DNA of 64,000 nt from Bacilli bacterium (GCA_017435485.1 JAFSEY010000013.1:600-64599); one strand, 5' to 3'. Counted from the first letter of the stretch, positions 3,534 through 29,129 are shown. The notes: generated by a model from the letters alone, not told the origin. Numbers and translations: made by a program.

Positions 3534-3557
3534 AGTTTCGCTTCCTTTTTTTATTAA

Positions 3558-4331
3558 TTATTTCTTGGCTAAAAAAGCCATGAATTGTGGTATTTCACTA
3601 TTCTTTATGTAATAATTCATATCAACTGTTTTAGCTTCTTCGATACATCTAGATTCTGTAAAATCTAAAACTTGAAAATTAGCTTCTCTTAATAATTTAA
3701 AATGCATCGATGGAGAACCAACATAAAACGCTAATACTTCCTTATCATTTTGCCATGCAAATGACGTAAAAACATGTTTTTCAAATGTGTGATATTTACC
3801 ATATACTTTGTTTCCATCATCATTTTTTGAACATCCTATAATTCTCAATGTTTCATCATCTATATTCTTTTCTTCTGAAGCCCATCTTAAAGGATGCCCG
3901 ACAGAAAACAAAAACAAACCGTTTGGCTTTAAAACCCTATACACTTCTTTATATATTTTTTCTGGGGTAGCACTATAATGAATCGCTAAACTACTATATA
4001 CGAAATCAAAACTATTACTTTCAAACGGAAGTTCATTCATATCTCCTACTATAAATTCTTTATCGGGATATGCTTTTTTCGCTAATTCTATTGATTTATT
4101 AGATATATCAATTCCAGTTAATTGTTCGGAAGTCGCACCAAAAGTTTCAAGCAAATCTGATTCTTCTCCTGTACCACAGCCCAACATTAATACTTTTTTG
4201 TTTTTTAAATTCGGTAGCATCGATTTCATCATAGGCTTTTCAACAAAACGATGAGAAGGCTTCATGCCATTAATTAAATCTTGTTGTCTTTTTTCAGCAA
4301 ATTTATCATAATCATTTATAATATTTTCCAT
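3558..4331 (-). CDS. class I SAM-dependent methyltransferase
   Basis: Motif I VLMLGCGTGEESD, followed by an acidic loop and motif II (FDFVYSS), in a 257-aa product. Confidence 0.75.
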   Translation of the reverse strand: MENIINDYDKFAEKRQQDLINGMKPSHRFVEKPMMKSMLPNLKNKKVLMLGCGTGEESDLLETFGATSEQLTGIDISNKSIELAKKAYPDKEFIVGDMNELPFESNSFDFVYSSLAIHYSATPEKIYKEVYRVLKPNGLFLFSVGHPLRWASEEKNIDDETLRIIGCSKNDDGNKVYGKYHTFEKHVFTSFAWQNDKEVLAFYVGSPSMHFKLLREANFQVLDFTESRCIEEAKTVDMNYYIKNSEIPQFMAFLAKK

Positions 4332-7656: not shown

Positions 7657-7774
7657 ACGATTCTTCCTTTCTAAAAAATAAATTAAATGTAATCATAATA
7701 ATAAATTAAAAGCGGATTACAAATTTGAAGCAAAGTAATTATAACACAATACATTATAATAAATCAAGTTTTAT

Positions 7775-8410
7775 TTAGAACCTCATTGATTCGCCTTTTT
7801 TTCTAGCTATTACTAAAGCAGCCGAAGTCTCTCCAGGTATAGAATGATATAAATCATCGTTTACAAATTCTTCTGTCATTTGGGATATTAAAGTTGGATC
7901 ATATAGTTCATTAAAAGAATTTTCGTCAAAAACTAAGTTGTTTGATCCATCAATAATAAAACCTTCTATATCTTTATTGTAACTATGAATGTAACGATTG
8001 TTAAATAAACCGCGGCAAAAAGAAGTACAAAGATCAAACCATAAAGTTTCAGTTAATTCTTGCGATATTGAATGGCACTCATTTTTCAACATATTATTTG
8101 CTAACCTATCGTTTAATATTTTACAGTCTATTGTTTCGGTTGCTTCCATAGCTTTAAATATTCCATCTTTGGTATCTAAAATCATAGTAGCACCTTCTCT
8201 TCTAGCTTCTTTAATAAACAAACCGCTACTATATAAATAAAGAGGAAATTGTTTATATATTGCTAGACGATTAAATAGAGTTGCATAAAAACTTTTAAAA
8301 TTAAAATCATATTTTTTTAATATTTCTTCTACTTCTGATTCATATTTTTTTATATTTGGATTAGTTAATGCAGCTACAATGTTACTACCAACACTATTGT
8401 TTGTTAGCAA
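7775..8410 (-). CDS. hypothetical protein, paralog of the adjacent 8483..9214 gene
   Basis: Shared blocks with its neighbour (YDFNFKSFYATLF / YNFNIYDFYNETLI; SGLFIKEARREGAT / KGLFIKNIKKDGLF). No recognisable domain. Confidence 0.5.
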   Translation of the reverse strand: MLTNNSVGSNIVAALTNPNIKKYESEVEEILKKYDFNFKSFYATLFNRLAIYKQFPLYLYSSGLFIKEARREGATMILDTKDGIFKAMEATETIDCKILNDRLANNMLKNECHSISQELTETLWFDLCTSFCRGLFNNRYIHSYNKDIEGFIIDGSNNLVFDENSFNELYDPTLISQMTEEFVNDDLYHSIPGETSAALVIARKKGESMRF

Positions 8411-8482
8411 ACTAATTTCTCTAAATGCATTATCAATTTTATTCTTTCTTTAATTGAGGATTTTAATTCTATTCTTTCTATT

Positions 8483-9214
8483 TTATACACTTATATCACC
8501 TATTTTCTTTGCTTTTTTTAAAGCGAGAGTAAATATTGGAAAATCTTTATTTTCATCATAATCTTTATATTCTTTTGTAGCAAAATATTCTTCTTTGGTA
8601 ACTTTGCTAATAATAATTGGGTTAAATAGCTTGTTGTATTGATCTTGATTCATAATCATATTGTGACTTGCATCCCAAACCTGATTAGTTCTTTCGCAAA
8701 TATTGTATGAATGTAAGTAATAACCCCCAAAATCCATTTTACATAGTGCTGTTACAGCAGTAAGACCTTTTGTTTCTAATAAATAAGTGGTATGTTTATG
8801 ACAATCACAGACTAATTCATAGTTTTTTTTAGCCTGTAATAACATTTTATCTTTTATATATTCTGCTAATAAAGCAAATCTAAATGTTTCATTAATTGTA
8901 CTCATCGAAACAAACAATCCATCTTTCTTGATATTTTTTATAAATAATCCTTTAATTAAATGATTTATATCTAAATTATTTTCTGTAGCTATATCGATTA
9001 GCGTTTCATTATAAAAATCATAAATATTGAAATTATAGTCAGCTAAAATATTTATAATCTCATCCTCATAAGCATGACTATTTGAATGTAATAATATTTC
9101 TCTTAAAGAAATCCCTAAAGAGTTATTAGTTTGTTTTGCTAGTGTTGTTATAACTTGATCTTTAATATCATTATTTTGGTCTATCGAATTATTTTCATAT
9201 TTAATTAAATCCAT
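8483..9214 (-). CDS. hypothetical protein, paralog of 7775..8410
   Basis: See the paralog entry; 243 aa, contains a CDCHKH motif. Confidence 0.5.
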   Translation of the reverse strand: MDLIKYENNSIDQNNDIKDQVITTLAKQTNNSLGISLREILLHSNSHAYEDEIINILADYNFNIYDFYNETLIDIATENNLDINHLIKGLFIKNIKKDGLFVSMSTINETFRFALLAEYIKDKMLLQAKKNYELVCDCHKHTTYLLETKGLTAVTALCKMDFGGYYLHSYNICERTNQVWDASHNMIMNQDQYNKLFNPIIISKVTKEEYFATKEYKDYDENKDFPIFTLALKKAKKIGDISV

Positions 9215-9243
9215 ATTAACCCCTCAATTTAGTTACCTATTTT

Positions 9244-9283
9244 ATCACAAAATAAAAAAATGTCTATATTTTTTAGACATTTT
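9244..9283 (-). terminator. intrinsic terminator (aatgtcta-N7-tagacatt plus U-run) overlapping the stop codon of the 9282..9734 gene
   Basis: 8-bp perfect stem followed by TTTTTTATTTTGTG on the minus strand. Confidence 0.6.
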
Positions 9284-9734
9284 ATCTTCCTTTAGATTTT
9301 TCTTGTTCGTTTTCAAAATTAAACATATTGTTGAAAGCTCTTATTTGAATTAATTTTTCACTTAGTGATCGTTCTAATCCTTCTAGCTGTTCTAAAAACA
9401 TTGTTTCTTTTTCCATTTTAATTTTATTATGATATTTATATAATAAAATTTCTTTTAATTTTGCCACTTCATCTAATGCAATAATACAATCACCTTCTGA
9501 AGTATCACTAGCATGAAGGATACTTAATACAATCATTACTAAACGTTTATATTTTTCTTTGAATTTTATCGTAATTAATTTGTCTACTAAACTAGGTTTT
9601 ACAATCATTATTTCATCAACTTTTAATTGATTATTTCCGTTGTTTTTTGATTTCATGTTATAACCTGTAAGATCATAGTTGTAATAAATTATTTCTTTTT
9701 TATCATCACTTTTTCTAATCACATAATTTTTCAT
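9282..9734 (-). CDS. hypothetical protein (150 aa) inserted downstream of trmD
   Basis: ORF with no recognisable motif, in a position where Bacillus has rplS directly after trmD. Confidence 0.45.
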   Translation of the reverse strand: MKNYVIRKSDDKKEIIYYNYDLTGYNMKSKNNGNNQLKVDEIMIVKPSLVDKLITIKFKEKYKRLVMIVLSILHASDTSEGDCIIALDEVAKLKEILLYKYHNKIKMEKETMFLEQLEGLERSLSEKLIQIRAFNNMFNFENEQEKSKGR

Positions 9735-9742
9735 TGTACCAC

Positions 9743-10405
9743 CTACTTTAATAAATCTGGTCTTTTTTCTTTAGTTTTTTTTATTTGCATTTCTTTACGA
9801 TAGTCAGCTATTTTTTTATGATCTCCACTCAATAATATTTCTGGTACTGTTAAACCACGATATTCCCTTGGCTTAGTATATGTCGGATAATCTAACAAAT
9901 TATTTTCAAAGCTTTCACTTTCTAAACTGCCACTAGTAATTACCCCATCTACTAATCTACTAATAGAATCTATTAATATCATGGCAGGAATTTCTCCACC
10001 TGTTAAAATAAAATCCCCTATACTGATTTCACAATCTATTAACGTTTTTATTCTTTCATCAAAACCTTCATAATGGCCACATATAATTATTAAATGTTTT
10101 TCTTTAGAAAATTCCTTGGCTGTACTTTGATTATACGTTTTACCTTCTGGAGTTAAGAGTATGACTTTACTTTCAGGCGTTTTGATATCATCAATAGCTA
10201 AAAAGATTGGTTCACATCTTAATACCATTCCACTTCCTCCACCATAAGGAGTATCATCAACTTGTTGATTGTTTAGTGGTGAATAGTCGCGAAAATTTAT
10301 AATATTTATTTCAATTAAATTTTTCTCGATAGCTCTTTTAATAATTGATTCTTCTAAAATATTTTTGAACATATTTGGAAATAAAGTTAATATATCTATT
10401 CTCAT
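9743..10405 (-). CDS. trmD: tRNA (guanine37-N1)-methyltransferase
   Basis: MRIDILTLFPNMF..., YGGGSGMV; 220 aa. Confidence 0.95.
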   Translation of the reverse strand: MRIDILTLFPNMFKNILEESIIKRAIEKNLIEINIINFRDYSPLNNQQVDDTPYGGGSGMVLRCEPIFLAIDDIKTPESKVILLTPEGKTYNQSTAKEFSKEKHLIIICGHYEGFDERIKTLIDCEISIGDFILTGGEIPAMILIDSISRLVDGVITSGSLESESFENNLLDYPTYTKPREYRGLTVPEILLSGDHKKIADYRKEMQIKKTKEKRPDLLK

Positions 10406-10923
10406 AAAATCAAGTCCTTAGCTTTCTTAGTATAAACTATATTATTTTCTAAATCTACTTTTTCAATATAATTGCCTTTTAAAGGAATATAAAATTTTTT
10501 AATTCCTTCAACTAATAATAAATCATTACCGTTATTATATATTATTTCTTTGATAACGCCAAGTTTTTCATTGTTTTCCATTATTGTACAAAGGATTAAC
10601 TCTTCTACAACATAATCATCTTTATTTATGTTTAAATCTGCTCTTTTAATATAAACCGGTAACGATTTTAATTTTAAAGCTTCATTAATATCATTTATCC
10701 CTTCTAATGTAACCATTTCAAAATCTTTATGATGACGATAAGAAATTATTTGATATGGATAATAATCTTTGCCTATATATATATTAAAATTAGGTATTAA
10801 TACTTCTTCTTTTCGTTCAAAATTACTTTTTATTCTTATTTCGCCCTTTATACCATGGGTACTAACTATTTTACCAAAATATAAATATTCTTTCATATAC
10901 TCACTCTTTATCATAAATTTCAT
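10402..10923 (-). CDS. rimM: 16S rRNA processing protein RimM
   Basis: FGKIVSTHGIKGEIRIKS N-terminus; position upstream of trmD. Confidence 0.9.
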   Translation of the reverse strand: MKFMIKSEYMKEYLYFGKIVSTHGIKGEIRIKSNFERKEEVLIPNFNIYIGKDYYPYQIISYRHHKDFEMVTLEGINDINEALKLKSLPVYIKRADLNINKDDYVVEELILCTIMENNEKLGVIKEIIYNNGNDLLLVEGIKKFYIPLKGNYIEKVDLENNIVYTKKAKDLIL

Positions 10924-11626
10924 GCATGATAATGGATGCGGCTACTCCAGCATTTAGTGATTCACAAGCAGGGTTCATTGTTAATGTTATAAATTTATCA
11001 CAAATACTTTGGCACTCTTTGCTCATACCTTTTCCTTCATTGCCTATTATTATAGCTACTTTTTCATTTTTCGCAATATTTTTAATAGAAACTCCATTAT
11101 TTAATGAAGTACCATAGATCATATAGTTGTTTTGTTTTAGTTGTTCTACACAATTTTTAACATCACTTCGGATGACATTACTATAAAAAATCATTCCTTC
11201 GCTCGATCTAATTACTTTTTCGTTGTATAAATCAACGCAGTTGTTTACTAGAATGATAGTTTTAAAATCAAAAGCTATACTACTTCTTATTATTGTTCCT
11301 AAATTTCCTGGATCTTGAATCTCGTCTAATATCAAAACATTTCCATAAATTTCTTTTTCCGATAGTTTTTGACAAATACCAATTATTGAAGGAGCACTTT
11401 TTTGATTAGATATTTTTTTCATAATATCACTAGTTACTTGATATGTATCTACACTAAATTCTTTATTCAATGTAGTTATAATTTCTAATAGTACATTATT
11501 TTTTAAAGCTTCCTCTATTAAATGGTCACCTTCAACTATAAATTTATTCTCGTTATCGCGAAATTTTTTATCATATAATTTAGCCCAATATTTAACTTTA
11601 GCATTATTTAAACTAGTTATTTCCAT
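10901..11626 (-). CDS. TrmH/SpoU-family RNA 2'-O-methyltransferase
   Basis: LILDEIQDPGNLGTIIRSS, GNEGKGMS and ESLNAGVAASIIMHE are SPOUT motifs. Confidence 0.8.
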   Translation of the reverse strand: MEITSLNNAKVKYWAKLYDKKFRDNENKFIVEGDHLIEEALKNNVLLEIITTLNKEFSVDTYQVTSDIMKKISNQKSAPSIIGICQKLSEKEIYGNVLILDEIQDPGNLGTIIRSSIAFDFKTIILVNNCVDLYNEKVIRSSEGMIFYSNVIRSDVKNCVEQLKQNNYMIYGTSLNNGVSIKNIAKNEKVAIIIGNEGKGMSKECQSICDKFITLTMNPACESLNAGVAASIIMHEIYDKE

Positions 11627-11628: not shown

Positions 11629-12276
11629 TTACTCCTTTAATTTTTTTCTTGCTTCTTTATATTTTGGATACGCTTGCGATACTAAGTCCCAAAATTTTTT
11701 CCCATGATTGCCTTCAAAAAAGTGACACATTTCATGAATAATTACATAATCAATTAAATCAATATCTTTTTCTAATAATAAACTATTTAAAGTGATAGTG
11801 TTATTTCTTCTATTACATACACCCCATCTTGTTTTCATTTTACGAACCTTTAAAGTAAACTCAGGGAGTTTTCGAAAACATTGACGGCACTTATCACATT
11901 CTTCAGTAAAAACATTAAAACACTCATCTTTAATAAATTTTTCTAACATTTTTTCATCTTTAGAATAAATAGTTTTTTCTTCGTTATTTAGTATAACACT
12001 TTCTTTATTTTCATCAAACATTAATAAATAATTTTCTCCTAGATATTTAAAATAATTAGATGGATTTATTTTTTCTTTTTGTTTTGCATACATTTTTTCT
12101 AAACTAGCTTTATTCGATTCAACCATTTTCAATATTTCTTTTTCTTTTACAAATATTGGACATGTTATATACAATTTTAAATCTTCTTTAATTCGAAAAT
12201 AAGCATTTTTATTTTTTTTGCGAATAATAATTATTTCTACATCATTTCCTAACAAATCACATTTCATTAGTTTCAC
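11629..12276 (-). CDS. YgjP-like (DUF45/WLM) metal-dependent hydrolase
   Basis: C-terminal YVIIHEMCHFFEGNHGKKFW (HExxH zinc motif of the YgjP family). Confidence 0.7.
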   Translation of the reverse strand: MKLMKCDLLGNDVEIIIIRKKNKNAYFRIKEDLKLYITCPIFVKEKEILKMVESNKASLEKMYAKQKEKINPSNYFKYLGENYLLMFDENKESVILNNEEKTIYSKDEKMLEKFIKDECFNVFTEECDKCRQCFRKLPEFTLKVRKMKTRWGVCNRRNNTITLNSLLLEKDIDLIDYVIIHEMCHFFEGNHGKKFWDLVSQAYPKYKEARKKLKE

Positions 12277-12325
12277 CTATCTAATTTTAACATAAGAAAG
12301 AAAAAAATTGTAGTTTAAACCACAA

Positions 12326-12592
12326 TTATTTATTTCGCGTTTCATATTGACCATTTTTTTGTAAAATTTTTCTTAATATCGGAGTTCTTGCTTGAGCAGT
12401 ATACCCTAGTTCTCTTAATAAAAAAGCCATTTCAGCAAGTGCTTCTTCACTAACATAACCAACTATTATTTCATTAGTAGATAAATCCATATATTTTGAC
12501 AATCTTGCTTGTAATCCTTCTTCATATACTCTATATTTATTTCCTGGACTTTCTAGAAATTCTTCTAAAAAAAGTTGTCCTTCTATTTCCAT
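12326..12592 (-). CDS. hypothetical 88-aa protein, translationally coupled to the paralog operon
   Basis: Its start overlaps the stop of the 12592..13866 gene. No motif recognised. Confidence 0.4.
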   Translation of the reverse strand: MEIEGQLFLEEFLESPGNKYRVYEEGLQARLSKYMDLSTNEIIVGYVSEEALAEMAFLLRELGYTAQARTPILRKILQKNGQYETRNK

Positions 12593-13866
12593 TACACTGT
12601 CCCTTTTTTATTAGACTTTAATCTTAATCTTGCTAACTCATCTATTTTATTAAATGCTATTCTTACTTCTTTGAGATACTCGTATAAATCACACCAAGCC
12701 ATTGCAACTAATTCTTTATAGTCTTCATATGTAACTTCATTTTTAGCATATGAAATAATTTCTCGGTCAATTGATTGGACTAAATAAGTTAGATTAAAAA
12801 TTACATATTTATAAAGTCCATCATTATTAAAGTATTCACTCGATATAATATAATTTGCGAAATTATAAATACTTTCCACCCTATTAAATTCTTCTTCTTT
12901 TTTTATTTGGGCAATTTTTTGTTTTAATAAATTAGCTTCCATTAATTCATTATGCTTGGCTATTTTTATTAAAATTAATTTTTTGTTTTCTTCAGATATT
13001 TTTATTTTTTCGCATAACGAAAGAATTTCTATTGTTAGTTGCTCATCAATATATTCAGCATATAATATTTTATAATTATTTAAATCAATATAATTTCTTA
13101 ACTGTAAATAAATTTTATTGTTTGCATTCATTTGAGCAATAATATCTTCTGATGTTTTTGTATTTCCCGGAATAATTTCTGCTTTTTTGACTGGAATTTT
13201 TTCTTGAGAATATTTTTGAGACATTAATTTATGTTCACTTACATTCATAACACGACTTGCTTGTCCAGGAGATAGCATAAGAAATTTAGTCAAAGTATTA
13301 AAGACACTTTCATCTTTTTCACTACCTTCGATTTTACCATCCAATTTAAAAATCGTTTCTATTTTATCTAAGTGAGTTCTAAGTCTTAAAGCATACATGC
13401 TTATTTCTTCTGTACTAATTTCATTTGATTTAGTTAATGAAAGTCTTTCTACTATTTTATCAGTAGTGTAGTATTTAGCAAAAATATTTATAAACATTGC
13501 TAGTATAGAATCTTTTTGAGTTTTATTTAATCCCAAACTATTTATAATTATTTCTAGTGTAGCAAAACAATCAACATTTAATCTTAACCCTAATGAATAT
13601 TCATATAATCTTATTACTCTATAAACCATCTCTTTTTTTGTTAAAAATTGCTCGTTTTTATCATTTATTAATAAGCAATTAAATCCTATCATATTAACAT
13701 TATTTTCTTTAAGCACCTTTGTCATTTCAGGACTTATCTTTAATTCTGCTAATTCAGAATCTAAATCAAATAAATATTTATTTGATTTACTCAAATGTTC
13801 ACATAATTCATTTGTTAATTTTTTTAATAATTCAATTAATTTAATCCGAAATTCTTCAATTGGCAT
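12592..13866 (-). CDS. uncharacterised alpha-helical protein, tandem paralog family member 5 of 5
   Basis: Shares the ISEENKKLILIKIAKHN block and a helix-rich architecture with the four genes upstream of it. Confidence 0.6.
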   Translation of the reverse strand: MPIEEFRIKLIELLKKLTNELCEHLSKSNKYLFDLDSELAELKISPEMTKVLKENNVNMIGFNCLLINDKNEQFLTKKEMVYRVIRLYEYSLGLRLNVDCFATLEIIINSLGLNKTQKDSILAMFINIFAKYYTTDKIVERLSLTKSNEISTEEISMYALRLRTHLDKIETIFKLDGKIEGSEKDESVFNTLTKFLMLSPGQASRVMNVSEHKLMSQKYSQEKIPVKKAEIIPGNTKTSEDIIAQMNANNKIYLQLRNYIDLNNYKILYAEYIDEQLTIEILSLCEKIKISEENKKLILIKIAKHNELMEANLLKQKIAQIKKEEEFNRVESIYNFANYIISSEYFNNDGLYKYVIFNLTYLVQSIDREIISYAKNEVTYEDYKELVAMAWCDLYEYLKEVRIAFNKIDELARLRLKSNKKGTV

Positions 13867-13879
13867 TTAATACTCACTC

Positions 13880-15067
13880 CTAAAAATCTCTTTTGTTATT
13901 TTTTCTTATTCTTAAAGCAACATTTTTTATTTCATTATATTGCAGTAATTCCGTTAGTATCTCTTTTAAGGATTCAAATAATACTGCTAAATAAATTGGT
14001 AAATCCACTTTTTTTACACCTTCATTTATATATTCTAAAATCAAGTTATCTATCTCGCTTTTAATTTCGATAAGTTTTTTAAATAAATATTGATAATTGT
14101 AATTTAGGACTAACGTTTGATTTTTCAACAAAATTTCAGTTGTTTCATAATCATAAGTCATTATTTCAGAAAAATATACTCTTTTTGTTTCTAATATTTG
14201 AAATTTTACTTTATCCTCATTTAGTTTTTGATTATGCTTAGCAATATTTAATAATATTTTTGTTTTATTTTCTTCAGAAATATTAAGTTTTAATGCTAGC
14301 ATCATAATTTGAAGTTTTAAATCATCATTTATAAATTCTTCTATAAGAACTATATATGTTTCACCTTTTAAATCTATATATTTGTTTAAAATATTATATA
14401 GGTTTTGTTTTTCTTTTAGGGAAATATCTACAACCTTTTTTTGTTTTTCCGGCAATTTAAATTCTTGTTTCGGTTTATCTACTTTATTTGCTTTTATATA
14501 TAATCTATTACACTCATTAATAATTTCCTGAGCTTGGCGAGGAGTTATAAAAAGTATTTTAATTAAATCATTAATATTACTATCTTCAATACTAACTGGA
14601 TTTATTTTCTCTTCTTCATTAATATATTTACGTAAATTTAATATTCTTGCACGCATTTCTTTAGCAATTTTTTTAATAAGTTTATTTTTTTCTTCGTCAC
14701 CAATGTCCGTTTTGCTTTCACTTATACCTTTAAGATAAAAAATAAGATATTCTATTGTAACCTGGTTAATTGCTTGATTTAAAACATGTGCTAATATCAT
14801 TAATCTGTCTTTTGGTTGTACCCTTATTTTTTCAAATGCTTTATCGATTATTGGAAAACAAGTATAGCAAAAGTCGTCATTTGCAATTGCATCACTAACG
14901 ATTTGTAATTCTTTCGAAAATTTTTGTTCATCATTTTCGAATTCAATAGTTACATATTTGGTTCCACAAATCCCTATGTTTTCACTTGTTATTTTTTGAC
15001 TAACTGCTTTAGGACAAGTTTTTATTGCTAACAAATGCATTTCTTTACAAAATTCTTGTAATGTCAT
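13880..15067 (-). CDS. uncharacterised alpha-helical protein, tandem paralog family member 4 of 5
   Basis: Shares YINEEEKINPVS...ITPRQAQEIINECN and ISEENKTKILLNIAKHN blocks with the other family members. Confidence 0.6.
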   Translation of the reverse strand: MTLQEFCKEMHLLAIKTCPKAVSQKITSENIGICGTKYVTIEFENDEQKFSKELQIVSDAIANDDFCYTCFPIIDKAFEKIRVQPKDRLMILAHVLNQAINQVTIEYLIFYLKGISESKTDIGDEEKNKLIKKIAKEMRARILNLRKYINEEEKINPVSIEDSNINDLIKILFITPRQAQEIINECNRLYIKANKVDKPKQEFKLPEKQKKVVDISLKEKQNLYNILNKYIDLKGETYIVLIEEFINDDLKLQIMMLALKLNISEENKTKILLNIAKHNQKLNEDKVKFQILETKRVYFSEIMTYDYETTEILLKNQTLVLNYNYQYLFKKLIEIKSEIDNLILEYINEGVKKVDLPIYLAVLFESLKEILTELLQYNEIKNVALRIRKNNKRDF

Positions 15068-15068
15068 A

Positions 15069-16337
15069 TTAACTTTCCTTTTTAATTCTTTCTAAAGATT
15101 GGTTAATTATTTTATAGTGTTTTGCTTCTAGTAATACATTATTTAAATCTTCAAAAGATAAATATAATAATTCATTAAAATCTTCTAAAGTCAGTTCTTC
15201 TTTTATTAAGCCTAATATTGTTGCATCAATACTTTCTTTCGCAACTTTCAACTTCGCGATAATATAATTTAACGATTGATCTTTTATAAGACAAATATCA
15301 TTAACAATACATCTTACTTTATTATAAGCAAAATGCATATCTTCAGTAAAATATGTAGTTTTTATTTCTTCTATGGCTAGCATTAATTTTTCTTGTTCTG
15401 CTTTTAATCTAGCTTCTTCTTTTTGTTTTAAAATCATATTATTATGTTTTTCAATTAGCAATAATATATTTCTTTGATTGTCTTCTGATATTCCTATTAT
15501 TTTAGCTAATCTTATTATTTCTATCTTTTTATTCTCATCAATTTCTTCTTCAAAAACAACAATATAATTTGCCCCAACGCGATTGATATATTTATTAAAC
15601 ATATAATGTGCCTCTTTATTCGGTTTTGCTAACGATAAAGTAGCATCACTTACCTTTGATTTATCATTTACCGATAAAATTATAAATTCTTTTTTAGTAG
15701 ATTTATTTATTTGCGCAAATTTTTTGTTACACTCATCAAGAATTATTTGAGTAAGATTAGTTGGAATTGATAGAATATGCGAAATATCATTTATTGAACT
15801 TTCATTTTTGGGAACCGGTAATATGTTGCCGTCTTCATCAATATACTTTCTAATTATCTTAAGATCTTGAAGTTGTAATTTTACTTGATTTTCAATTTCT
15901 TCTTCCGAATGATGTTTATATTTTAATTTTTTTACTGCATCAGGATACCGCAAAACAGCTTGATTCTCTTCATGTAGCCATTTTTTTAATTCTTCTTTTG
16001 TACAAAGATTAATTGCCCAATTTATTCTATCAAGTGTGATAGCTAAACAATCTTCTTTTGAAATTTTTAATAAACTTAAAGTATAATCCAGATATTTAAA
16101 GAAAAACATATTAAAAAGATTTTCTTCTATCATCCTTTTAGTCAAATTAAAAATATCATATATTTTTCTTAATTCTTGATAACTTTTCGTCATTTTAATG
16201 TTGTCATACTTTAAAGGATCAAAATCATTTTTTATTTCAAAACCCATAAAACAATCTTGATGCTCAAATTCATCATTGCCTTTTTTGATCTCTTTCATCC
16301 AACTACTTATTAACTTTATAAACTCTTCTATAGTCAT
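15069..16337 (-). CDS. uncharacterised alpha-helical protein, tandem paralog family member 3 of 5
   Basis: Shares YIDEDGNILPVP and ISEDNQRNILLLIEKHN blocks with the other family members. Confidence 0.6.
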   Translation of the reverse strand: MTIEEFIKLISSWMKEIKKGNDEFEHQDCFMGFEIKNDFDPLKYDNIKMTKSYQELRKIYDIFNLTKRMIEENLFNMFFFKYLDYTLSLLKISKEDCLAITLDRINWAINLCTKEELKKWLHEENQAVLRYPDAVKKLKYKHHSEEEIENQVKLQLQDLKIIRKYIDEDGNILPVPKNESSINDISHILSIPTNLTQIILDECNKKFAQINKSTKKEFIILSVNDKSKVSDATLSLAKPNKEAHYMFNKYINRVGANYIVVFEEEIDENKKIEIIRLAKIIGISEDNQRNILLLIEKHNNMILKQKEEARLKAEQEKLMLAIEEIKTTYFTEDMHFAYNKVRCIVNDICLIKDQSLNYIIAKLKVAKESIDATILGLIKEELTLEDFNELLYLSFEDLNNVLLEAKHYKIINQSLERIKKES

Positions 16338-17584
16338 ATTTTAGATTCCTTTCTTATTCTTGGCATGTTGTAATCTCGTACTTGCTTTAAACTTTTATCT
16401 ATATCACTTAAAGCAATCATAATATAATCAATTTGAAAATCTCTATCTTCTTTTGATCCATTAAACATTTCATATATTGTTTGATCTATTATATTAATAC
16501 TAGAAGTTATTATTCCATTTAAATAACTTAATTGTGTTTTGCTTTGTAAAGCTTGAGAATATATGTCTTCTGCTAAAGATTCAAAGTTTTTGTCTTCTTT
16601 TAGATCAATTTCAGCAAAAATATCATTTCTAAATTGTGCTATATCTTTTTCAATATAATCTTGATTACTTTTTTTTATATTAGATAGTATTATACTTACT
16701 TTTTCCACCGAATATCCCAATAAATTAATTAGTTGTGATACTGTAGTAATTTGATCTTCATCTAGATAATCTACTGGCATATTATTTTCCAAATTTATAT
16801 ATTGTTTTAACTCAAAAGCTAATTGTTTTTGCTTTTTATAGTTAGTGCCATCAGAAACTGATTTGTCTTTTGCTTTTAATGTTGCTTGTTTTATCAAAAT
16901 AATATTGTTTGATTTTTCAATTGAGCTTAACACAGTAGCAATTTCTTCTTCGCTATAATTTAGAGTTCGCATATTTTTCTTTGCTCTTTCAATTTCTTCA
17001 GATGATATCATTCTTTTATATTCTGTTATATCATCAATTAGCTTTTTCATTTCTAATGCTATCTTCTTTAAAAGGAATTCTTGTTTTTGAAGTTTCTTGT
17101 ATCTAGAATTACTTAAAACTAATATATCTCTAATATATTGTTTAGCTACTGGAACATACATTTGAATAGATGCGATCTCATTAATATCCCATTTACAATT
17201 GCAAGGTAAAATTTCTCCATCACTAGAAATAATTGTTCTTATCCTTTTTAAATTCGCATGCAACATATCATATTTTTTTTCACTTGAAAAAGCCGTTTTT
17301 GTCATATATATTTTTCTATTTTCTTTTGTATCTTCTTCAAATATAATCATGCATTTATTTATATAGTAAGCTATAACTTCGGTTTTTTCTTCATCACTAA
17401 GATTTGTATTAATAAGAAGAGTCATTAAACTTCTAAAAACATCTGGAAAATACGATGTTTTTTTTGCCTCAAGTAACTTTGTTATACTTTTGGCCATAAC
17501 GTCAGTAAATCTAAATTCTTTATTTAAATAAAGAATGAATTCTTCATCATTAATAATATTTTTAAATTTTTCTATAGTTTGCAC
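16334..17584 (-). CDS. uncharacterised alpha-helical protein, tandem paralog family member 2 of 5
   Basis: Its closest relative is the 17663..18886 gene (ELKQYI..DYLDEDQI...LGYSVEK..IILSNIKKSN; C-terminal DYIMIALSDIDK). Confidence 0.6.
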   Translation of the reverse strand: MQTIEKFKNIINDEEFILYLNKEFRFTDVMAKSITKLLEAKKTSYFPDVFRSLMTLLINTNLSDEEKTEVIAYYINKCMIIFEEDTKENRKIYMTKTAFSSEKKYDMLHANLKRIRTIISSDGEILPCNCKWDINEIASIQMYVPVAKQYIRDILVLSNSRYKKLQKQEFLLKKIALEMKKLIDDITEYKRMISSEEIERAKKNMRTLNYSEEEIATVLSSIEKSNNIILIKQATLKAKDKSVSDGTNYKKQKQLAFELKQYINLENNMPVDYLDEDQITTVSQLINLLGYSVEKVSIILSNIKKSNQDYIEKDIAQFRNDIFAEIDLKEDKNFESLAEDIYSQALQSKTQLSYLNGIITSSINIIDQTIYEMFNGSKEDRDFQIDYIMIALSDIDKSLKQVRDYNMPRIRKESKI

Positions 17585-17662
17585 TTAAAACACCCCTTTT
17601 GATGTGTTTTATATACTATCATAAAACAGCTTCAAAGTAAACAAAAAGCATCTATTAGACGC

Positions 17663-18886
17663 TCATGATTTTCTTTTTCTAAGCAGATTCCATTCGATAG
17701 CTTGCGCAAAACATTGATCTATGTCATTTAAGGCTTCCATAATATATTCGATATAGAAAGTTCTTTCTTCTGAAAATTCTACTAATTCTCTAACTGAATT
17801 TTGAATTTCATTTAAAGCTGCTTTAATTCGATTATTTAATTCTTCTATTTTAGTTTCGTTTTTTAAAGCAACTTCATATATTTCTGAAGATAAAGCTGTA
17901 AATGGCTTATCTTTTCTAGAATCTATTTCTTTAAAAACATCTTCTCTAGTTTTTTCTAATTGGAATCGATTTTCATCACACATAATTTTTTCATTATATT
18001 TTTTTATATTATTTAATATAGTGTTTTTTCGTTCCTCTGAATATCCTAATTCTTGTATTAAATTTATAACTAAATTAATTTGATCATCTGATAGATAATC
18101 ATATGGCTTATCATCATCTCCAATAAATTGTTTTAATTCATGGGCTAAATTCTTTATTTGCTTATAATCTACTGATTTTATTGGTTTAGGGGCATTATCT
18201 TTAGGGTGACTCATACGATATAATTTATTATTCTTTTCAATTTGATTTTCAACATTTTGAATCTCTTCTGGAGAATAGCCTTGCTTTCTCATTAATTTTT
18301 TAATATCTTCTATTTCTTTGGTATTGTAAAATTTATTATTATCAATCAATGACTCTAAATGTCTAATTAATTCAATAGCTTCTTGTTTACGTCTGGCTAC
18401 TTTTTTTGAAATTTCTTCGTCTTTTTTATTACTTAATTTTATTATTTTAATAATATTTTCTTCGTTATTGACGCAAAAAGATTGAAATAAATTAATTATA
18501 TCTTCTGTAGGCTTAATTAGACACGGCACAATATTGCCTTCTTCATCTATGTATGCTCTCAATATCTTTGCTTTAATACACAGGCTATCATATATTTTTC
18601 CCTCTTCATTACCATGAATTTTAATATATTCAGCTCTATGGTCACTATTTCCATTATAAAATTTTAAAATTTTATTATATAAATAAGCATTTATCTCAGT
18701 TTTTTCTTTTTCACTAAAACCTAACCAACTAAGTATTATTTTTATATCCATTAATTCGCTATTAGCATAAACCAAGTATTCTCTATCAATGAAATCCATA
18801 AACATTGAAGCATTAAATTCTCCTACTTTATCTATAAATCTTTGACTACTAACTAATTTTTTTAATTTTTCTACGCTTTCCATCAT
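17663..18886 (-). CDS. uncharacterised alpha-helical protein, tandem paralog family member 1 of 5
   Basis: Shares YIDEEGNIVPCL; ELKQFI..DYLSDDQI..LGYSEERKNTILNNIKKYN; C-terminal EYIMEALNDIDQ with the other family members. Confidence 0.6.
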   Translation of the reverse strand: MMESVEKLKKLVSSQRFIDKVGEFNASMFMDFIDREYLVYANSELMDIKIILSWLGFSEKEKTEINAYLYNKILKFYNGNSDHRAEYIKIHGNEEGKIYDSLCIKAKILRAYIDEEGNIVPCLIKPTEDIINLFQSFCVNNEENIIKIIKLSNKKDEEISKKVARRKQEAIELIRHLESLIDNNKFYNTKEIEDIKKLMRKQGYSPEEIQNVENQIEKNNKLYRMSHPKDNAPKPIKSVDYKQIKNLAHELKQFIGDDDKPYDYLSDDQINLVINLIQELGYSEERKNTILNNIKKYNEKIMCDENRFQLEKTREDVFKEIDSRKDKPFTALSSEIYEVALKNETKIEELNNRIKAALNEIQNSVRELVEFSEERTFYIEYIMEALNDIDQCFAQAIEWNLLRKRKS

Positions 18887-18930: not shown

Positions 18931-18961
18931 TGTAAACAAAAAGCATCAGAATTTGATGCTT
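18931..18961 (-). terminator. intrinsic terminator (aagcatca-gaatt-tgatgctt plus TTTGTTTAC) overlapping the glyQS stop codon
   Basis: Perfect 8-bp palindromic stem and U-rich tail, as read from the sequence. Confidence 0.6.
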
Positions 18962-20322
18962 TCTTTTATATAATCAGCAACTTCTTTTATTGGCATTTTT
19001 ATTTGTTCCATAGAATCTCTATGTCTTATTGTAACTATATTATCACTAATTGTTTCATCATCTATAGTAATACAAAATGGTGTTCCCACAGCATCGCTAC
19101 GACGATATCTTTTTCCAATACTTCCTGTTTCATCATAACTTGTATTAAATTTTTTACATAATAAAGCATAAACATCGTTAGCCTTATCAGCATGAATCTT
19201 TTTAATTAATGGTAAGATTGTTGCTTTTATTGGCGCTAGACTTGGTTTTACTTTTAATACGATTCTTTCGTCTGTTTCACTTAATTTTTCTTTAGTATAA
19301 GCATCTGCTAAAACAGCTAAGAATAAACGATCAACTCCTAATGATGGTTCAATTACATATGGAATGTATTTTTCATTAGTTTCTGGATCTAAATATCTTA
19401 AATCAGCTTTAGAATGATCAATGTGTTTCGATAAATCGTAATCAGTTCGATCAGCAATTCCCCAAAGTTCACCCCATCCCATAGGATATAAGTATTCAAT
19501 ATCAGTTGTGGCTTTACTATAGAAAGACAACTCTTCTTTTGCGTGATCACGATATCTTAAATTTTCTTTTCTGATTCCTAATTCTTTTAGAAAATCGATA
19601 CAGAAATTTTTATAATATCCAAACCATTCTAAGTCAGTTCCTGGTTTACAGAAGAATTCTAATTCCATTTGTTCAAATTCTCTTACTCTAAATATAAAAT
19701 TTCCTGGAGTTATTTCGTTACGGAAAGCTTTACCTATTTGACCAATTCCAAAAGGAACTTTAAGACGCATGCTTCTTTGAACATTTAGGAAATTCACAAA
19801 AATTCCTTGCGCTGTTTCTCCTCTTAAATACACTTTATTTTTACTATCTTCAGTAACTCCTTGATATGTTTCATATAATAAATTAAATTTTCTAATTGGC
19901 GTAAAATCAGTATTAGTACATTTTGGACAAGCAATATTATTTTCCTTAATATAGTTTTCTAATTCCTCATTTGTCCATCCATCACCAGTAAGTTCTCCGT
20001 TAGAATGATCTTCAATTAGTTTGTCCGCACGATAACGGCTTTTACATTTTTTACAATCAATTAAAGGATCGTTAAAACTGGTTACATGGCCACTTGCTAC
20101 CCATACTTCTGGATTCATAATAATAGCACTATCTAATCCATAATTATAAGGATTTTCTTGGATAAATTTTTGCCACCAAGCTTTTTTTATATTATTTTTT
20201 AATTCTACTCCTAAAGATCCATAATCCCAAGAATTAGCAAGCCCTCCATATATTTCACTACCTTGAAAAACAAATCCATATTGTTTGCAATAGTTTACTA
20301 ATTCTTCCATTGTTAATTTCAT
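18946..20322 (-). CDS. glyQS: glycine--tRNA ligase (dimeric GlyQS type)
   Basis: The 458-aa product has class II aaRS motifs and an N-terminus ([21 protein letters not shown]) typical of GlyRS. Confidence 0.9.
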
Positions 20323-25768: not shown

Positions 25769-26644
25769 TTATTTTAAACCTCGAGGATTTGAATCATCAT
25801 AATAGCCAAATTTTAGGTTTGAAGTATTAAATATTTCTTGAAAGCATTTTTTTAATACCTTTTTACTTTCTATAGTTTCTATTGGCTTTATTAACTCAAA
25901 ATCATTTAACACTATTGAATCAGAAAAACAATCATCAATTTTCATAGATTCTATTTTTATGTTAGTGTTAAGTAAATTTTCTATATCTATACAAGTTTTA
26001 ATATACTTGCTAAAAAAATCCAATATCTTTCGAAATATTTGTTCTTGCCAATGTAAAGGGATCAACTCACTTTTATCTATACAAAAAAAGATATATACCC
26101 AAGCATCATATGTGCAAATTTGATTTATGATATTTTCAAAGCCATACAGTATGTTAAACATTGGGTTATTTTTTTCCCTACTTTTTGTATTTAAATTATT
26201 AAACAAAACTGGAAGCTTACCCACTTCTTTAGAAAATTCATCTTTTTCTAGATCTAATTGCAAGATTATTTTATTTAATCTCTTATGGATAAGATCATGA
26301 AACATAGCACATATGCCCAATTGAATCACGGTAAAAGCACAAGCTATACTATCTTTTAAACTGTAAATATAAATTTTTGTATTATCTTGTTCAATGTAAT
26401 CTCCGCATGAATTCGGTGTCTTTAAATTTGATTTATCGCTAATTTCAAAATAGCATACTTCTCTTCTTTGACGACCTAAATATGTAGCCATTTCATTTTC
26501 AATACTTTGTAAAACTTTAATTCTTTGTTCAGCATTTAATTTTTCCCAATTTTTATCTACTAAATAAAATAAATTTTCTTCTGAAATCAAATTAATCACC
26601 TTCAAAGTAGTTTTTATTTTAGCTATTAAATCATATTTTGTCAA
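25769..26644 (-). CDS. hypothetical cytoplasmic protein downstream of the bacteriocin peptides (start uncertain)
   Basis: The 291-aa ORF as given starts at a TTG directly abutting a hairpin and has no RBS. An in-frame TTG 54 nt downstream is preceded by GAAGGTGA and is the more likely start (about 26590). Confidence 0.45.
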   Translation of the reverse strand: MTKYDLIAKIKTTLKVINLISEENLFYLVDKNWEKLNAEQRIKVLQSIENEMATYLGRQRREVCYFEISDKSNLKTPNSCGDYIEQDNTKIYIYSLKDSIACAFTVIQLGICAMFHDLIHKRLNKIILQLDLEKDEFSKEVGKLPVLFNNLNTKSREKNNPMFNILYGFENIINQICTYDAWVYIFFCIDKSELIPLHWQEQIFRKILDFFSKYIKTCIDIENLLNTNIKIESMKIDDCFSDSIVLNDFELIKPIETIESKKVLKKCFQEIFNTSNLKFGYYDDSNPRGLK

Positions 26645-26649
26645 TTAAT

Positions 26650-26674
26650 AAAGATATCCGGTTGGATATCCTTA
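26650..26674 (-). terminator. hairpin (GGATATCC-aacc-GGATATCT) immediately 3' of bacteriocin peptide gene 2
   Basis: 8-bp stem with one G-U pair plus a U-rich tail (TTTATTAATT), read from the sequence. Likely a terminator or attenuator after the structural genes. Confidence 0.45.
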
Positions 26675-26676
26675 TT

Positions 26677-26835
26677 TTAACAATATTTTTTTGAAAAAAA
26701 TCTTCTAATTGTTGTTCCAACAATTTGGCCGAGATTTAAAAGTGTTGATGCCGCTCTGGATAAAGCATTAATGAAGGATGCTGAGATAGCTCCGCCATTA
26801 ATTTGCGTTAATTCATTTTTATTTAATGTTTTCAT
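26677..26835 (-). CDS. class II bacteriocin-like precursor peptide with a double-glycine leader (52 aa)
   Basis: Absent from the ORF track. MKTLNKNELTQINGG | AISASFINALSRAASTLLNLGQIVGTTIRRFFSKKYC: hydrophobic residues at -4, -7, -12 and -15 of the leader, a GG cleavage site, and a cationic amphipathic core. Its ATG overlaps the stop of peptide 1 (ATGA). Confidence 0.65.
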   Translation of the reverse strand: MKTLNKNELTQINGGAISASFINALSRAASTLLNLGQIVGTTIRRFFSKKYC

Positions 26836-26978
26836 TTTTTCAGACATTTTAATGGTCTTATTAAACCATCAAATACTCCTATAATGAATACTCCAAATCC
26901 AGCTATTGCAGCTAGCACACCAACTTTAATCCCGCCTCCTTCAACTATTCTTAAATCATTATCTGTTAATTTTGTTAT
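26832..26978 (-). CDS. second double-glycine-leader bacteriocin-like peptide (48 aa); ATA sits at the expected initiator position
   Basis: (I/M)TKLTDNDLRIVEGG | GIKVGVLAAIAGFGVFIIGVFDGLIRPLKCLKK. Leader residues match the -4/-7/-12/-15 pattern. GGGAGG lies 7 nt upstream of the ATA codon and there is no in-frame ATG/GTG/TTG. The core contains GxxxG (GVFDG). Confidence 0.5.
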   Translation of the reverse strand: MTKLTDNDLRIVEGGGIKVGVLAAIAGFGVFIIGVFDGLIRPLKCLKK

Positions 26979-26990
26979 TTTAAAACCTCC

Positions 26991-29042
26991 CTACTTATGA
27001 AAATTTTTAGGCATGTTTATACAATAATCAAAATATTTTCTTAAATTTTTATGACTTACATAAATAATCGTTTTATTTCGATAATATCTTTTTATATTTT
27101 TAATAATTTCTATTTCAGTTTTAATATCAACTTCACTTAAAGCTTCATCAATAATTATAAAGTTGCCGTTTTTAAGCAAATTTCTTGCTAAAATTATTTG
27201 TTGTTTTTCTCCTCCTGAAAGATTAGTAAGACTATCGGCTATATTACTTAAGAAGCGTAAAGGTTTTTTGGCAATTATTTTATCTATCAAACATATTTGG
27301 CAAACTCTTTTAAATTGTTTTTTTGATATATTGCGATGACAAATAATATTTTGATAGATAGTATCAGAATAAAGACTTTCTTTTTGATTAATAATCGTAA
27401 AATTATCTTTAATCCATTTAGCACTAATATCTTTATAATTTAATTTTCCCAACAAAATATCCCCTTGATAATTATTGATTTCTTTATATAAGCACTTTAT
27501 TAAAGTACTTTTACCACAACCAGATAAGCCATTTAAAAAATAACTTTTTCCAGTTCTTAATTTATAACTAAAGTTATTAATTATATTTGTGGTATCGTCA
27601 TAGGAAACTTGTAAATTTTTAATTTGAATATCATTATACTCAGGAACAAAAATCCTATTATCTTTTTCTTTGGGTAAATTTCTAAATTCACTAACTTTAT
27701 ATATTGAGTTTTTAAGATAATAGAATTGAGGAATAATACTTATGATGCTTTCATAAGATGTCGAAAACCAATTAATTAGAGAATTAAAGGTAATTAAATT
27801 TATTAAATCAAATTTATTTAATAATATTTGATATAGCGCATAGGTATTTAGTAATAAAAAGCCTAAGTCTTTAACAATTAATTTTAAAACTTGCTCTATA
27901 TTTATTATCCGTCTTAAATCATCATCAGTTCTAATTACTTCTGACAATTTATAATCAAGCCATAAATTTATTTGGGGCTTAATCTGTAAATTATTGATAC
28001 TAGTAGCCATTTCGATGTTTTCAATCAAACAAGTATTGTAATCTGTTTCGGTATCCATCCAACATCTAATTTTGGTGTTTACTTTATTAGCAAAAAGTAA
28101 AGAAATTATCGTGTACAATATATATGTAATTAAAATAATTAAAAATAATTTCAAATTGATTAAGGCTAACATACCAATACTAGCAATTACTAATAAAACA
28201 TCAAGTAATAAAGTAATAAACATCTCTGAAAAAAACTCTTTTATTTCTTTTAGTTCATTAACTCTAGTTATTATTTCTCCAGATGTTTTAGTTTGTAATA
28301 TATTTAAAGGAAGAAAAAAGATATGACTTACAAAATCTGATATTAAACTTTTATGAACGGTTTTATTTAACTTATTATATAATCCGTTATGCCAAAATGT
28401 AATTAAAGTTTTTAAGAGTGTAATTAATACGAATGATATAAATAAAATAAACATTAAATTTGTTTTATTGTTATGGATTAGAAAGTCACCAATTTCTAAA
28501 TAAAAGCCACTTAATAAACTAAATATCATTATTAAGAGACTTAATAAAATTATTAGAAGGTACTTTTGTTTTTCTTTGAACAAAATTTCGAAAAAGAAGT
28601 GTACTACGTTAGTTTGCATTGGATAATTTATTATTTCGTGTTTTGGTTGGAAATCTATTATTATATTGTCCCATTGTTTAAGGAATTCGGCCTGAGTTAA
28701 AACTAATTTTCCCTTAGCAGGATCCATTATAGTTAATCTATCATTTTTTATTTTATAGATTACAACAAAATGGTTAAGGCCATTTTCTAAGATTACATGA
28801 GCTATAGCTGGTAATCTTGTTATATTTTTAAAATTTTGACATTTCATCCCGTTAGCTTCAAAGCCATAAGATTTGGCTGCTTTGATTAAATGATATGCAC
28901 TAGTCCCCCGATCATCGGCATAAGTATCTAATCTTATTTTTTCTAACGGAACATTTCCATTATAATGACGTATTATACTAAGTAAACAACAAGGTCCACA
29001 ATCTTTTAAATCTCTTTGATAAACAATATCCTTTCTTTTCAT
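26991..29042 (-). CDS. bacteriocin/peptide ABC exporter with N-terminal C39 peptidase domain (ComA/LagD type)
   Basis: N-terminal QRDLKDCGPCCLLSII...HFVVIYKI (C39 Cys/His), six TM helices, Walker A GLSGCGKST, signature LSGGEKQQ, Walker B IIIDEALS. Confidence 0.9.
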   Translation of the reverse strand: MKRKDIVYQRDLKDCGPCCLLSIIRHYNGNVPLEKIRLDTYADDRGTSAYHLIKAAKSYGFEANGMKCQNFKNITRLPAIAHVILENGLNHFVVIYKIKNDRLTIMDPAKGKLVLTQAEFLKQWDNIIIDFQPKHEIINYPMQTNVVHFFFEILFKEKQKYLLIILLSLLIMIFSLLSGFYLEIGDFLIHNNKTNLMFILFISFVLITLLKTLITFWHNGLYNKLNKTVHKSLISDFVSHIFFLPLNILQTKTSGEIITRVNELKEIKEFFSEMFITLLLDVLLVIASIGMLALINLKLFLIILITYILYTIISLLFANKVNTKIRCWMDTETDYNTCLIENIEMATSINNLQIKPQINLWLDYKLSEVIRTDDDLRRIINIEQVLKLIVKDLGFLLLNTYALYQILLNKFDLINLITFNSLINWFSTSYESIISIIPQFYYLKNSIYKVSEFRNLPKEKDNRIFVPEYNDIQIKNLQVSYDDTTNIINNFSYKLRTGKSYFLNGLSGCGKSTLIKCLYKEINNYQGDILLGKLNYKDISAKWIKDNFTIINQKESLYSDTIYQNIICHRNISKKQFKRVCQICLIDKIIAKKPLRFLSNIADSLTNLSGGEKQQIILARNLLKNGNFIIIDEALSEVDIKTEIEIIKNIKRYYRNKTIIYVSHKNLRKYFDYCINMPKNFHK

Positions 29043-29129
29043 TTTTCTCCCTTCATTAGTTATATTGCCAAAAAGGGAGTTAATTTCCTTTTAAAAAACA
29101 AATCTTTTTTGAGATTTGTTTTGTTTTTT

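Follow-up and report, generated by a model that had tools for sequence, protein, structure and literature searches.

What are five diverged tandem paralogs doing between two housekeeping genes of a gut bacterium? The genes lie in a 64,000-nucleotide (nt) stretch, hereafter the window, of a metagenome-assembled genome (MAG; GCA_017435485.1, JAFSEY010000013.1:600-64599; locus tags IJO33_05030 and IJO33_05050) from an uncultured goat/ruminant gut bacterium with the NCBI label "Bacilli bacterium". On the minus strand, positions 12,326 to 18,886 encode five large proteins, here named E, D, C, B and A in the order in which they are read, followed by an 88-residue protein, P88 (order E-D-C-B-A-P88). 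Here we report that these proteins belong to a new, lineage-restricted family of soluble, non-enzymatic, almost all-helical modular proteins, that P88 is a single free module of this family, and that the array differs in sequence and gene content between strains with nearly identical flanking genes. At a rough probability of 0.4, we read the locus as encoding co-produced, co-assembling recognition proteins under diversifying selection at a site of biological conflict.

A tandem array of diverged paralogs

The array and its two flanks, which are housekeeping genes on the same strand, comprise the following features (subtypes and modules are described below).

18946-20322, same strand as the array: glyQS, flank on the E side
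17663-18886, minus strand: gene E, 407 residues, D/E-type with three modules, intact open reading frame (ORF), modelled with AlphaFold2
16334-17584, minus strand: gene D, 416 residues, GTG start, D/E-type, first gene of the coupled unit
15069-16337, minus strand: gene C, 422 residues, A/B/C-type member, intact ORF
13880-15067, minus strand: gene B, 395 residues, A/B/C-type member, intact ORF
12592-13866, minus strand: gene A, 424 residues, A/B/C-type member, intact ORF
12326-12592, minus strand: P88, 88 residues, free-standing family module, start overlapping the A stop by 1 nt
11629-12276, same strand as the array: YgjP-like metallopeptidase gene (Pfam, 2e-42), flank beyond P88

A first-pass annotation, made by a model from the sequence, had placed the array between a ygjP-like gene and glyQS, as the Pfam match and the glycyl-tRNA synthetase (GlyRS) confirm, and had described five tandem homologs of 407 to 424 residues. 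The homology is borne out by BLASTP, whereas the length range must be widened for B. D and E share 32% identity (E = 9e-53) and B and C 31% (E = 8e-30); A matches C (E = 2e-15) and B (E = 4e-14), and a match between B and E (E = 3e-10) joins both subgroups. Paralog identities range from 18 to 32%, and the proteins fall into two old subtypes, A/B/C and D/E, with which a neighbour-joining tree agrees. Since there are no DNA-level repeats among the array copies, the duplications are ancient, with no recent gene conversion within the array.

The motif blocks quoted in the annotation are present in the array proteins, and its statement that they lack a transmembrane (TM) segment, signal peptide or catalytic motif also stands. 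The maximum 19-residue Kyte–Doolittle mean of the large proteins is ≤1.22 and their isoelectric points (pI) are 5.5–8.0; neither a TM segment nor a signal peptide was found in any array protein. Only a Gly, an Ile and an Asn are nearly invariant across the family, which leaves no catalytic signature. The proposed all-alpha build agrees with the AlphaFold2 model of E, computed from a 33-sequence family alignment (predicted local distance difference test (pLDDT) 90.5, predicted TM-score (pTM) 0.51), in which two short hairpins are the only departure from helix and single helices reach 40 residues.

A repeat module and its free-standing copy

Conservation across the family is highest in a module of ~55–60 residues, which comprises a helix, a short β-hairpin, a second helix, a tight G-x-S turn and a long helix, with the consensus L-K-x-Y-[IL]...(hairpin)...[YF]-[IL]-x-x-E-E...L-L-x-x-L-G-Y-S-x-E-x-I-x-x-I-x-x-x-I-x-K-x-N. 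Beyond the modules, the large proteins consist of long helices and a C-terminal helical hairpin. A/B/C-type proteins have two modules and D/E-type proteins three, whereas P88 is a single one. The modules located with a profile hidden Markov model (HMM) are as follows.

18197-18403, minus strand: extra module of E (residues 162-230), specific to the D/E type, 22.2 bits
17963-18172, minus strand: central module of E (residues 239-308), 68.7 bits
16877-17086, minus strand: extra module of D, 24.7 bits
16634-16846, minus strand: central module of D, 67.2 bits
15411-15635, minus strand: central module of C, 51.5 bits
14201-14425, minus strand: central module of B, 51.5 bits
12919-13137, minus strand: central module of A, 52.3 bits
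12341-12505, minus strand: module region of P88, found with the module HMM

The extra internal module is found in D, E and their orthologue P0007 (22–25 bits). An hhalign comparison shows module 1 (E residues 98-160, around "YIDEEGNIVP") and the central module to be homologous (probability 92%, E = 6.6e-7); the C-terminal regions, which served as a control, show no homology to the module.

The assignment of P88 was made with a module HMM from whose construction P88 was excluded. It scores residues 30-84 of P88 at 28.9 bits and the L001 orthologue of P88 at 31.8 bits, against a best score of 8.6 bits among 2,000 shuffled sequences, and the full-length family HMM also detects P88 (25.8 bits). 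The AlphaFold2 model of P88 (pLDDT 89.0, pTM 0.69) shows a helix, a helix, a hairpin, a helix and a long helix, which is the expected order, and the protein is conserved in L001, L012 and L017. P88 is thus a stand-alone counterpart of the family's internal module, not a classical antitoxin or secreted peptide. An exported pro-peptide is likewise rejected, given its homology to a module inside the large proteins, its pI of 5.0 and the absence of a hydrophobic N terminus (maximum 19-residue Kyte–Doolittle mean 1.18).

Predicted transcription and translation units

Promoters and terminators were predicted from consensus and hairpin scans, supplemented by readings below the scan threshold.

18940-18962, minus strand: glyQS terminator hairpin with T-run, upstream of E, kept in L010 and L012
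18908-18936, minus strand: predicted sigma-A-like promoter of E, TTTACA-17 nt-TG-n-TAACAT, from the consensus scan
17646-17664, minus strand: predicted terminator-like hairpin with T-run, 3′ of E
17613-17641, minus strand: predicted promoter-like site of the D unit, TTTACT-17 nt-TG-a-TAGTAT, below the scan threshold
12301-12326, minus strand: AT-rich hairpin (7 base pairs) with T-run between P88 and ygjP, weak, sub-threshold and uncertain

Both the −35 element and the extended −10 element of the E promoter are kept in L010 and L012, and a ribosome-binding site (RBS) lies between this promoter-like site and E; these elements are kept in both relatives. The hairpin after E is retained in the same two relatives, with a different stem sequence. 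L012 keeps the promoter-like site of D, whereas L010, in which D survives only as a pseudogene remnant, has lost it; in the window, D is preceded by a strong RBS, AAAAGGGGTG. From the terminator-like hairpin and the conserved extended −10 site between E and D, E is probably transcribed alone, from its own predicted sigma-A-like promoter, which sets it apart from the single five-gene operon of the first-pass annotation.

D, C, B, A and P88, by contrast, are predicted to form one translationally coupled unit. D and C overlap by 4 nt (ATGA), C and B are separated by 1 nt and B and A by 13 nt, and A and P88 share 1 nt (TAATG), with a Shine–Dalgarno sequence at each of these four junctions. The coupling reported earlier is thus retained, as are the 4-nt D/C overlap and the overlap of the last large gene with the 88-residue ORF, whereas the supposed overlaps of 1 and 13 nt are spacers.

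Array alleles differ between close relatives

Four other assemblies have the gene order of the window and flanking proteins that are mostly 94–100% identical (among close relatives, Era and L19 100%, GlyRS 97% and TrmD 96–98%), and their arrays are all different, which makes five arrays with that of the window. In L012, the array consists of E (51% identity to the window protein), D (41.5%), a 104-residue C-terminal fragment of C (79%), a different paralog of the A/B/C type (about 31% to C and B), A (91.5%) and P88 (93%). L017, whose flanking SpoU and RimM proteins are 99% identical to those of the window (synonymous divergence (dS) 0.01), carries E (46%), D (66%), C (48%), a 28-codon remnant of the A tail and P88 (68%). 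In L010, L011 and the goat-caecum MAG RGIG1752, E (44%) is followed by a frameshifted stub of D, which covers its first ~80 codons and is joined to the region upstream of ygjP, and D through P88 are deleted. The copy-number variation that the first-pass annotation had proposed to survey is thus present among close relatives.

Individual alleles are mosaics. Whereas E alleles of close relatives are 44–51% identical to the window E overall, the L012 allele matches it at about 35% in the first 240 residues and at about 80% in the remainder. The additional L012 paralog matches P0011 at 100% in its C-terminal half and at 20–50% in its N-terminal half. D shows the reverse against L017 (N-terminal half 86%, C-terminal half 49%), so the N-terminal half is not always the variable one. 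Between L001/L002 and the window, B is 95% identical (dS 0.07) beside an A that is 79% identical (dS 0.54); aligned to L002 positions 3-974, B (window 13880-15067) has a dS of 0.07, against about 0.5 for the adjacent A, P88 and ygjP, which indicates a recent recombination tract confined to B.

Flanking genes have a dS of 0.23–0.25 and a ratio of nonsynonymous to synonymous divergence (dN/dS) of 0–0.08. E and D, in contrast, have a dS of 0.8–1.5 and a dN/dS of 0.33–0.47; the ratio is 0.20–0.33 for A and 0.20 for the module part of P88, and all array genes are under purifying selection (dN/dS 0.2–0.5). The contrast in dS and identity between the locus and its flanks indicates that the alleles predate their present host strains, whether they were imported or persisted as long-lived polymorphisms, and have been reshuffled by recombination.

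Similar contrasts occur in the adjoining housekeeping operon. RimM (10402-10923) is 73–78% identical to its L012 and L010 counterparts (dS 0.76–0.88), whereas the product of the overlapping trmD is 96–98% identical; RimM and the trmH/SpoU-like gene product (10901-11626) are 99% identical to those of L017 (dS 0.01), whereas the adjacent ygjP has a dS of 0.49. Recombination boundaries therefore cross the housekeeping operon beside the array.

The family is an old resident of this position

Scanning 1.84 billion representatives clustered at 50% identity with a five-paralog HMMER profile gave 37 proteins at E ≤ 1e-3, 20 of them at E ≤ 1e-10. Of the 37, P0037 is a repeat protein matched spuriously, which leaves about 36 genuine clusters, each of 1–5 sequences. 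The members have 350–550 residues and a low-GC composition, and those with names are all "MAG: Bacilli bacterium". Among 185,579 GTDB species representatives, an E-type alignment found one match, RGIG1752, and a C-type alignment none.

In the distant relatives L006 and L009, a single family member lies directly upstream of ygjP-trmH-rimM-trmD, and in L009 it directly follows the GlyRS C terminus. TrmD and YgjP of these relatives are 73% and 57% identical to those of the window, and the family member about 20%. The family is therefore an old resident of the glyQS/ygjP position, single-copy in distant relatives and expanded here by ancient tandem duplication. The earlier description of the array as an insert does not hold in the sense of a foreign one. 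GC content is ~25% across the array and its surroundings, without a compositional break. The annotation had also named single-copy core conservation as an outcome that would speak against its proposal; the single-copy state is indeed ancestral at the locus, whereas the window has five copies.

Members also occur at other positions: beside recO/hrcA in L004, beside topA in L007 (two copies), at rsgA/rpe in L015 (three copies and a 100-residue ORF equal to the family's C-terminal domain) and in L003 (three copies). In the tree, the expansions of different lineages (three copies each in L003 and L015) are independent. One member, P0034 (550 residues; L014 187-1839), carries one or more N-terminal TM segments, and in L014 it is followed by two ORFs with no Pfam match and a gene for a Xer-type tyrosine recombinase (3125-4015).

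Short ORFs that match parts of a full-length member, within or at the ends of arrays, were also observed elsewhere, including the 104-residue fragment of C in L012 (12688-13002) and the stand-alone C-terminal domain in L015 (6629-6931; 16 bits to the family HMM). Directly upstream of the three-member array of L003 is a gene (7667-9517) for a 616-residue protein with no Pfam match, which has five internal repeats of ~60 residues ('G-x-K-I-N-Y-x-x-F-x-x-L...') and a C-terminal part that looks sigma-70-region-like by eye; the family module HMM found no similarity to these repeats.

Searches for known relatives

No significant match to any of the six array proteins was found in Pfam, NCBIfam, PHROGs or PADLOC, and a Pfam search of 33 family members at E ≤ 5 gave no recurrent family. 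Sub-gathering-threshold matches were to UBA_6 in three of the 33 (best E = 0.0014) and to RuvA_C in one. The helix-turn-helix core of the module, 'L-x-x-L-G-[YF]-S-x-E-x-x-x-x-I', resembles the 'MGF' loop pattern of the three-helix motifs of UBA-like domains and RuvA domain III. The module has in addition a preceding helix and β-hairpin and a much longer last helix, and the matches lie far below gathering thresholds in a minority of members. Against PDB sequences, neither the full-length nor the module profile matched anything beyond a calpain chain (E = 0.54) and helical repeats designed de novo, the latter as a compositional artefact, and the best Foldseek match in the PDB had an E value of 0.4. 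A word-index homologue search was swamped by words rich in K, E, I and N and returned 3–4 matches. The family thus remains unassignable to any characterised one, as the first-pass annotation had found.

Several specific identities were rejected or down-weighted. Neither PF07261 nor a DDBH fold, which would mark a DnaD/DnaB_2 replication-initiation domain, was found. A HEPN-like toxin appeared in Foldseek at E = 3.4, without a conserved Rx4-6H motif. A divergent form of SigA or DnaG, for which the position after glyS would be the expected one, clashes with the hypervariability and the fold. Spore-coat proteins have no signal peptide and evolve fast. With yabP and yqfD nearby this identity was considered; the sigma-A-like extended −10 promoters predicted for both transcription units, and conserved, make it less likely.

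Comparison with known variable loci

Hypervariable loci in a conserved backbone are known from the hsdS arrays of type I restriction–modification systems and from the comQXP and rap-phr pherotype loci of Bacillus. Like these, the present locus has conserved flanks around diverged mosaic alleles, tandem full-length and partial copies, and presence/absence variation between close strains; HsdS also shares a length of ~400 residues, long helices and duplicated internal halves. However, the array proteins have no Methylase_S (PF01420), TPR or HTH domain, they are all-alpha whereas HsdS target-recognition domains are alpha/beta, and the array is accompanied by no partner methylase, restriction enzyme, kinase or exported peptide. 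With neither hsdM nor hsdR among the adjacent or Pfam-scanned window ORFs, an HsdS identity is rejected. So is programmed shuffling of the hsdS kind: the locus has no recombinase and no inverted or direct DNA repeats, and no simple-sequence switch was found at the array.

Polymorphic toxin–immunity and orphan cassette arrays are found at contact-dependent inhibition (CDI), Rhs and LXG/type VII secretion system (T7SS) loci, and their immunity proteins typically have 100–200 residues. Tandem diversified paralogs and mosaicism driven by recombination are common to these arrays and ours, as are fragment-like end ORFs resembling those of orphan cassettes (P88, the fragment of C in L012 and the 100-residue ORF in L015). 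The array proteins, in contrast, have about 400 residues, the family lies inside core operons rather than islands, and no toxin gene, LXG/WXG100 domain or secretion gene is present at or beside the array. A toxin–antitoxin or polymorphic toxin–immunity array is not supported: Pfam and PADLOC gave no toxin-like match for the array genes or those next to them.

Possible recognition proteins at a putative conflict locus, and the alternatives

On the reading that we favour, D, C, B, A and P88 would be made in stoichiometric amounts, as translational coupling suggests, and the paralogs and P88 may assemble into a hetero-oligomer, to which the coupling, the shared modules and the long helices point. 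Near-identical strains would come to differ in their arrays as alleles are replaced, genes recombine internally and copies are truncated or deleted, with each gene still under purifying selection. The proteins would serve as binding or recognition components (sensors, decoys or adaptors rather than enzymes), with specificity under diversifying, frequency-dependent selection, most likely in a conflict between strains or with phage or other mobile elements. We put the functional part of this reading, taken by itself, at roughly one in three. A more elaborate version, which we consider doubtful, is a combinatorial recognition machine with a new fold, in which strain-specific hetero-oligomers capped by the free module P88 would sense, sequester or decoy factors of phages or rival strains, sited in a core housekeeping region and diversified by cassette-like recombination of alleles. 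The annotation had likened the array to immunity, antitoxin, sensor or phase-variable systems. Diversifying behaviour of that kind is strongly supported by the comparison of strains (alleles at 41–66% identity, mosaics, truncated remnants, deletion), but no toxin, effector, recombinase or simple-sequence switch was found.

Several observations weigh against a conflict role. Pfam and PADLOC scans found no toxin, effector, nuclease, recombinase or mobile-element gene adjoining the array. The best PADLOC-DB v2 matches (Csx1, E = 0.011; PDC-M35B, E = 0.027) involve one protein each and are noise, and PHROGs gave no match below E = 0.025. A link to mobile elements was not found by tblastn of E against INPHARED phages or of C against PLSDB plasmids, nor in a pattern-limited scan of IMG/VR with the E-type alignment. 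Gene-wide dN/dS values stay below 1 and so do not demonstrate positive selection, and the high divergence could be explained by recombination with diverged lineages together with weak constraint. A lineage-specific cellular role would account equally well for the single copy kept at a core position, and it is from evolutionary behaviour that we infer a possible immunity, antitoxin or phase-variation role.

Such a cellular role might be that of a lineage-specific scaffold, either a spectrin- or EzrA-like cortical or division structure or another self-assembling cytoplasmic structure, evolving fast because only helical packing is constrained. The elongated, multi-helix models with their 40-residue helices and pTM of 0.51, the TM anchor of P0034, placed N-terminally as in EzrA, the single copy conserved at a core position and the sigma-A-like promoters are all as expected. 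EzrA and spectrin were weakly the best structural neighbours in Foldseek, but all such matches are below significance, none of the proteins matches PF06160 and spectrin repeats have no counterpart of the β-hairpin-containing module. Moreover, a scaffold would not be expected to show 41–66% identity, mosaics, truncation and deletion between strains with flanks mostly 94–100% identical; the GTDB representative strain lives with E alone, and a genuine EzrA is present in L006. We therefore regard a scaffold as unlikely.

Near-neutral expansion, in which dispensable duplicates drift at a recombination-prone site, would account for the whole or partial loss of the array in some strains with pseudogene remnants left behind, for dN/dS values of 0.3–0.5, which are 5–10 times those of neighbouring genes, and for the extreme rarity of the family. 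It is improbable in view of the maintenance of five intact genes and P88, with dN/dS clearly below 1 (0.20 for the module part of P88), and of their RBSs, coupling, promoters and terminators. The paralogs are also ancient, and the family persists across lineages with TrmD only 73% identical and has undergone three independent expansions.

A third alternative looks to the neighbouring genes: the proteins might be adaptors or inhibitors of the YgjP/SprT-like zinc metallopeptidase, or factors in the RNA-maturation neighbourhood of trmH-rimM-trmD and era-ybeY. In the window, L006, L009, L010, L012 and L017, the ygjP-like gene directly follows a family member or array on the same strand, and the L003 array abuts a Zn_peptidase_2 gene. 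Yet members in L004, L007 and L015 lie elsewhere, ygjP is translationally coupled to trmH-rimM-trmD instead of the array, from which the weak terminator-like hairpin separates it, and the proteins are neutral to acidic, hence atypical RNA binders. Hypervariability would also be at odds with a partner as conserved as YgjP, which is 85–99% identical between relatives, and this alternative is very improbable.

Finally, RNPP/Rap-type quorum-sensing receptors with P88 as their signalling partner, a lead suggested by the ~400-residue helical paralogs, their strain variability and a small gene that overlaps the 3′ end of the last large one, superficially as in rap-phr cassettes, are effectively refuted: no TPR or HTH family is among the Pfam matches listed for the 33 members at E ≤ 5, the PDB profile search returned no RNPP chain, the Foldseek match to PlcR reaches no better than E = 3.9 (probability 0.06, TM-score 0.12–0.15), and P88 is acidic, has no signal peptide and is homologous to a module inside the large proteins.

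Host and other features of the window

The window encodes a class B RNase P, a class A penicillin-binding protein, MutS, Lon and the sporulation proteins YabP and YqfD, which together indicate an ordinary walled Firmicute. The class B bacterial RNase P RNA (56367-56706, minus strand; 263.7 bits) fits a Firmicute (Bacilli) origin.

Between trmD and rplS are three lineage-specific ORFs with no Pfam match (7775-8410, 8483-9214 and 9282-9734, minus strand; 211, 243 and 150 residues). The 243- and 211-residue proteins are paralogs (about 30% identity, E = 1e-23 to 1e-29), and the former has a Cys/His-rich patch (CDCHKHT...H.YN). These ORFs are 80–85% identical between strains with TrmD and L19 at 97–100%, and the 150-residue protein is kept after trmD even in the distant L006 and L009 (46%).

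About 7 kb upstream of the array (25769-29852, minus strand) lie genes for a C39-peptidase ABC exporter (683 residues) and a CmpB-like protein and a 291-residue ORF with no Pfam match, a block resembling a bacteriocin or peptide export unit. Its DNA is 87% identical to that of L010, against 94% for the neighbouring DNA, and BLAST of the 291-residue ORF against the L010 ORFs gave no match. In L012 (8559-9935), glyQS is called as two ORFs (172 and 274 residues), a split that points either to a frameshift in this essential gene or to a mis-assembly.

Significance

The novelty of the family and its fold is high, and its biological significance is unproven; the family is very rare and confined to uncultured organisms. 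Function aside, these proteins define a clean new modular family with a confident predicted structure and no PDB neighbour, and P88 provides a natural case of a free-standing repeat module encoded beside its multi-module relatives. The contrast between flanks (dS 0.01–0.25) and locus (dS 0.8–1.5, with differing gene content) is among the sharpest in MAG data. If the conflict reading is true, the array would represent a defence or recognition system with no enzymatic effector and no island context, missed by every current detector, and would mean that hypervariable recognition loci can sit in the core translation-gene neighbourhoods of uncultured gut Firmicutes.

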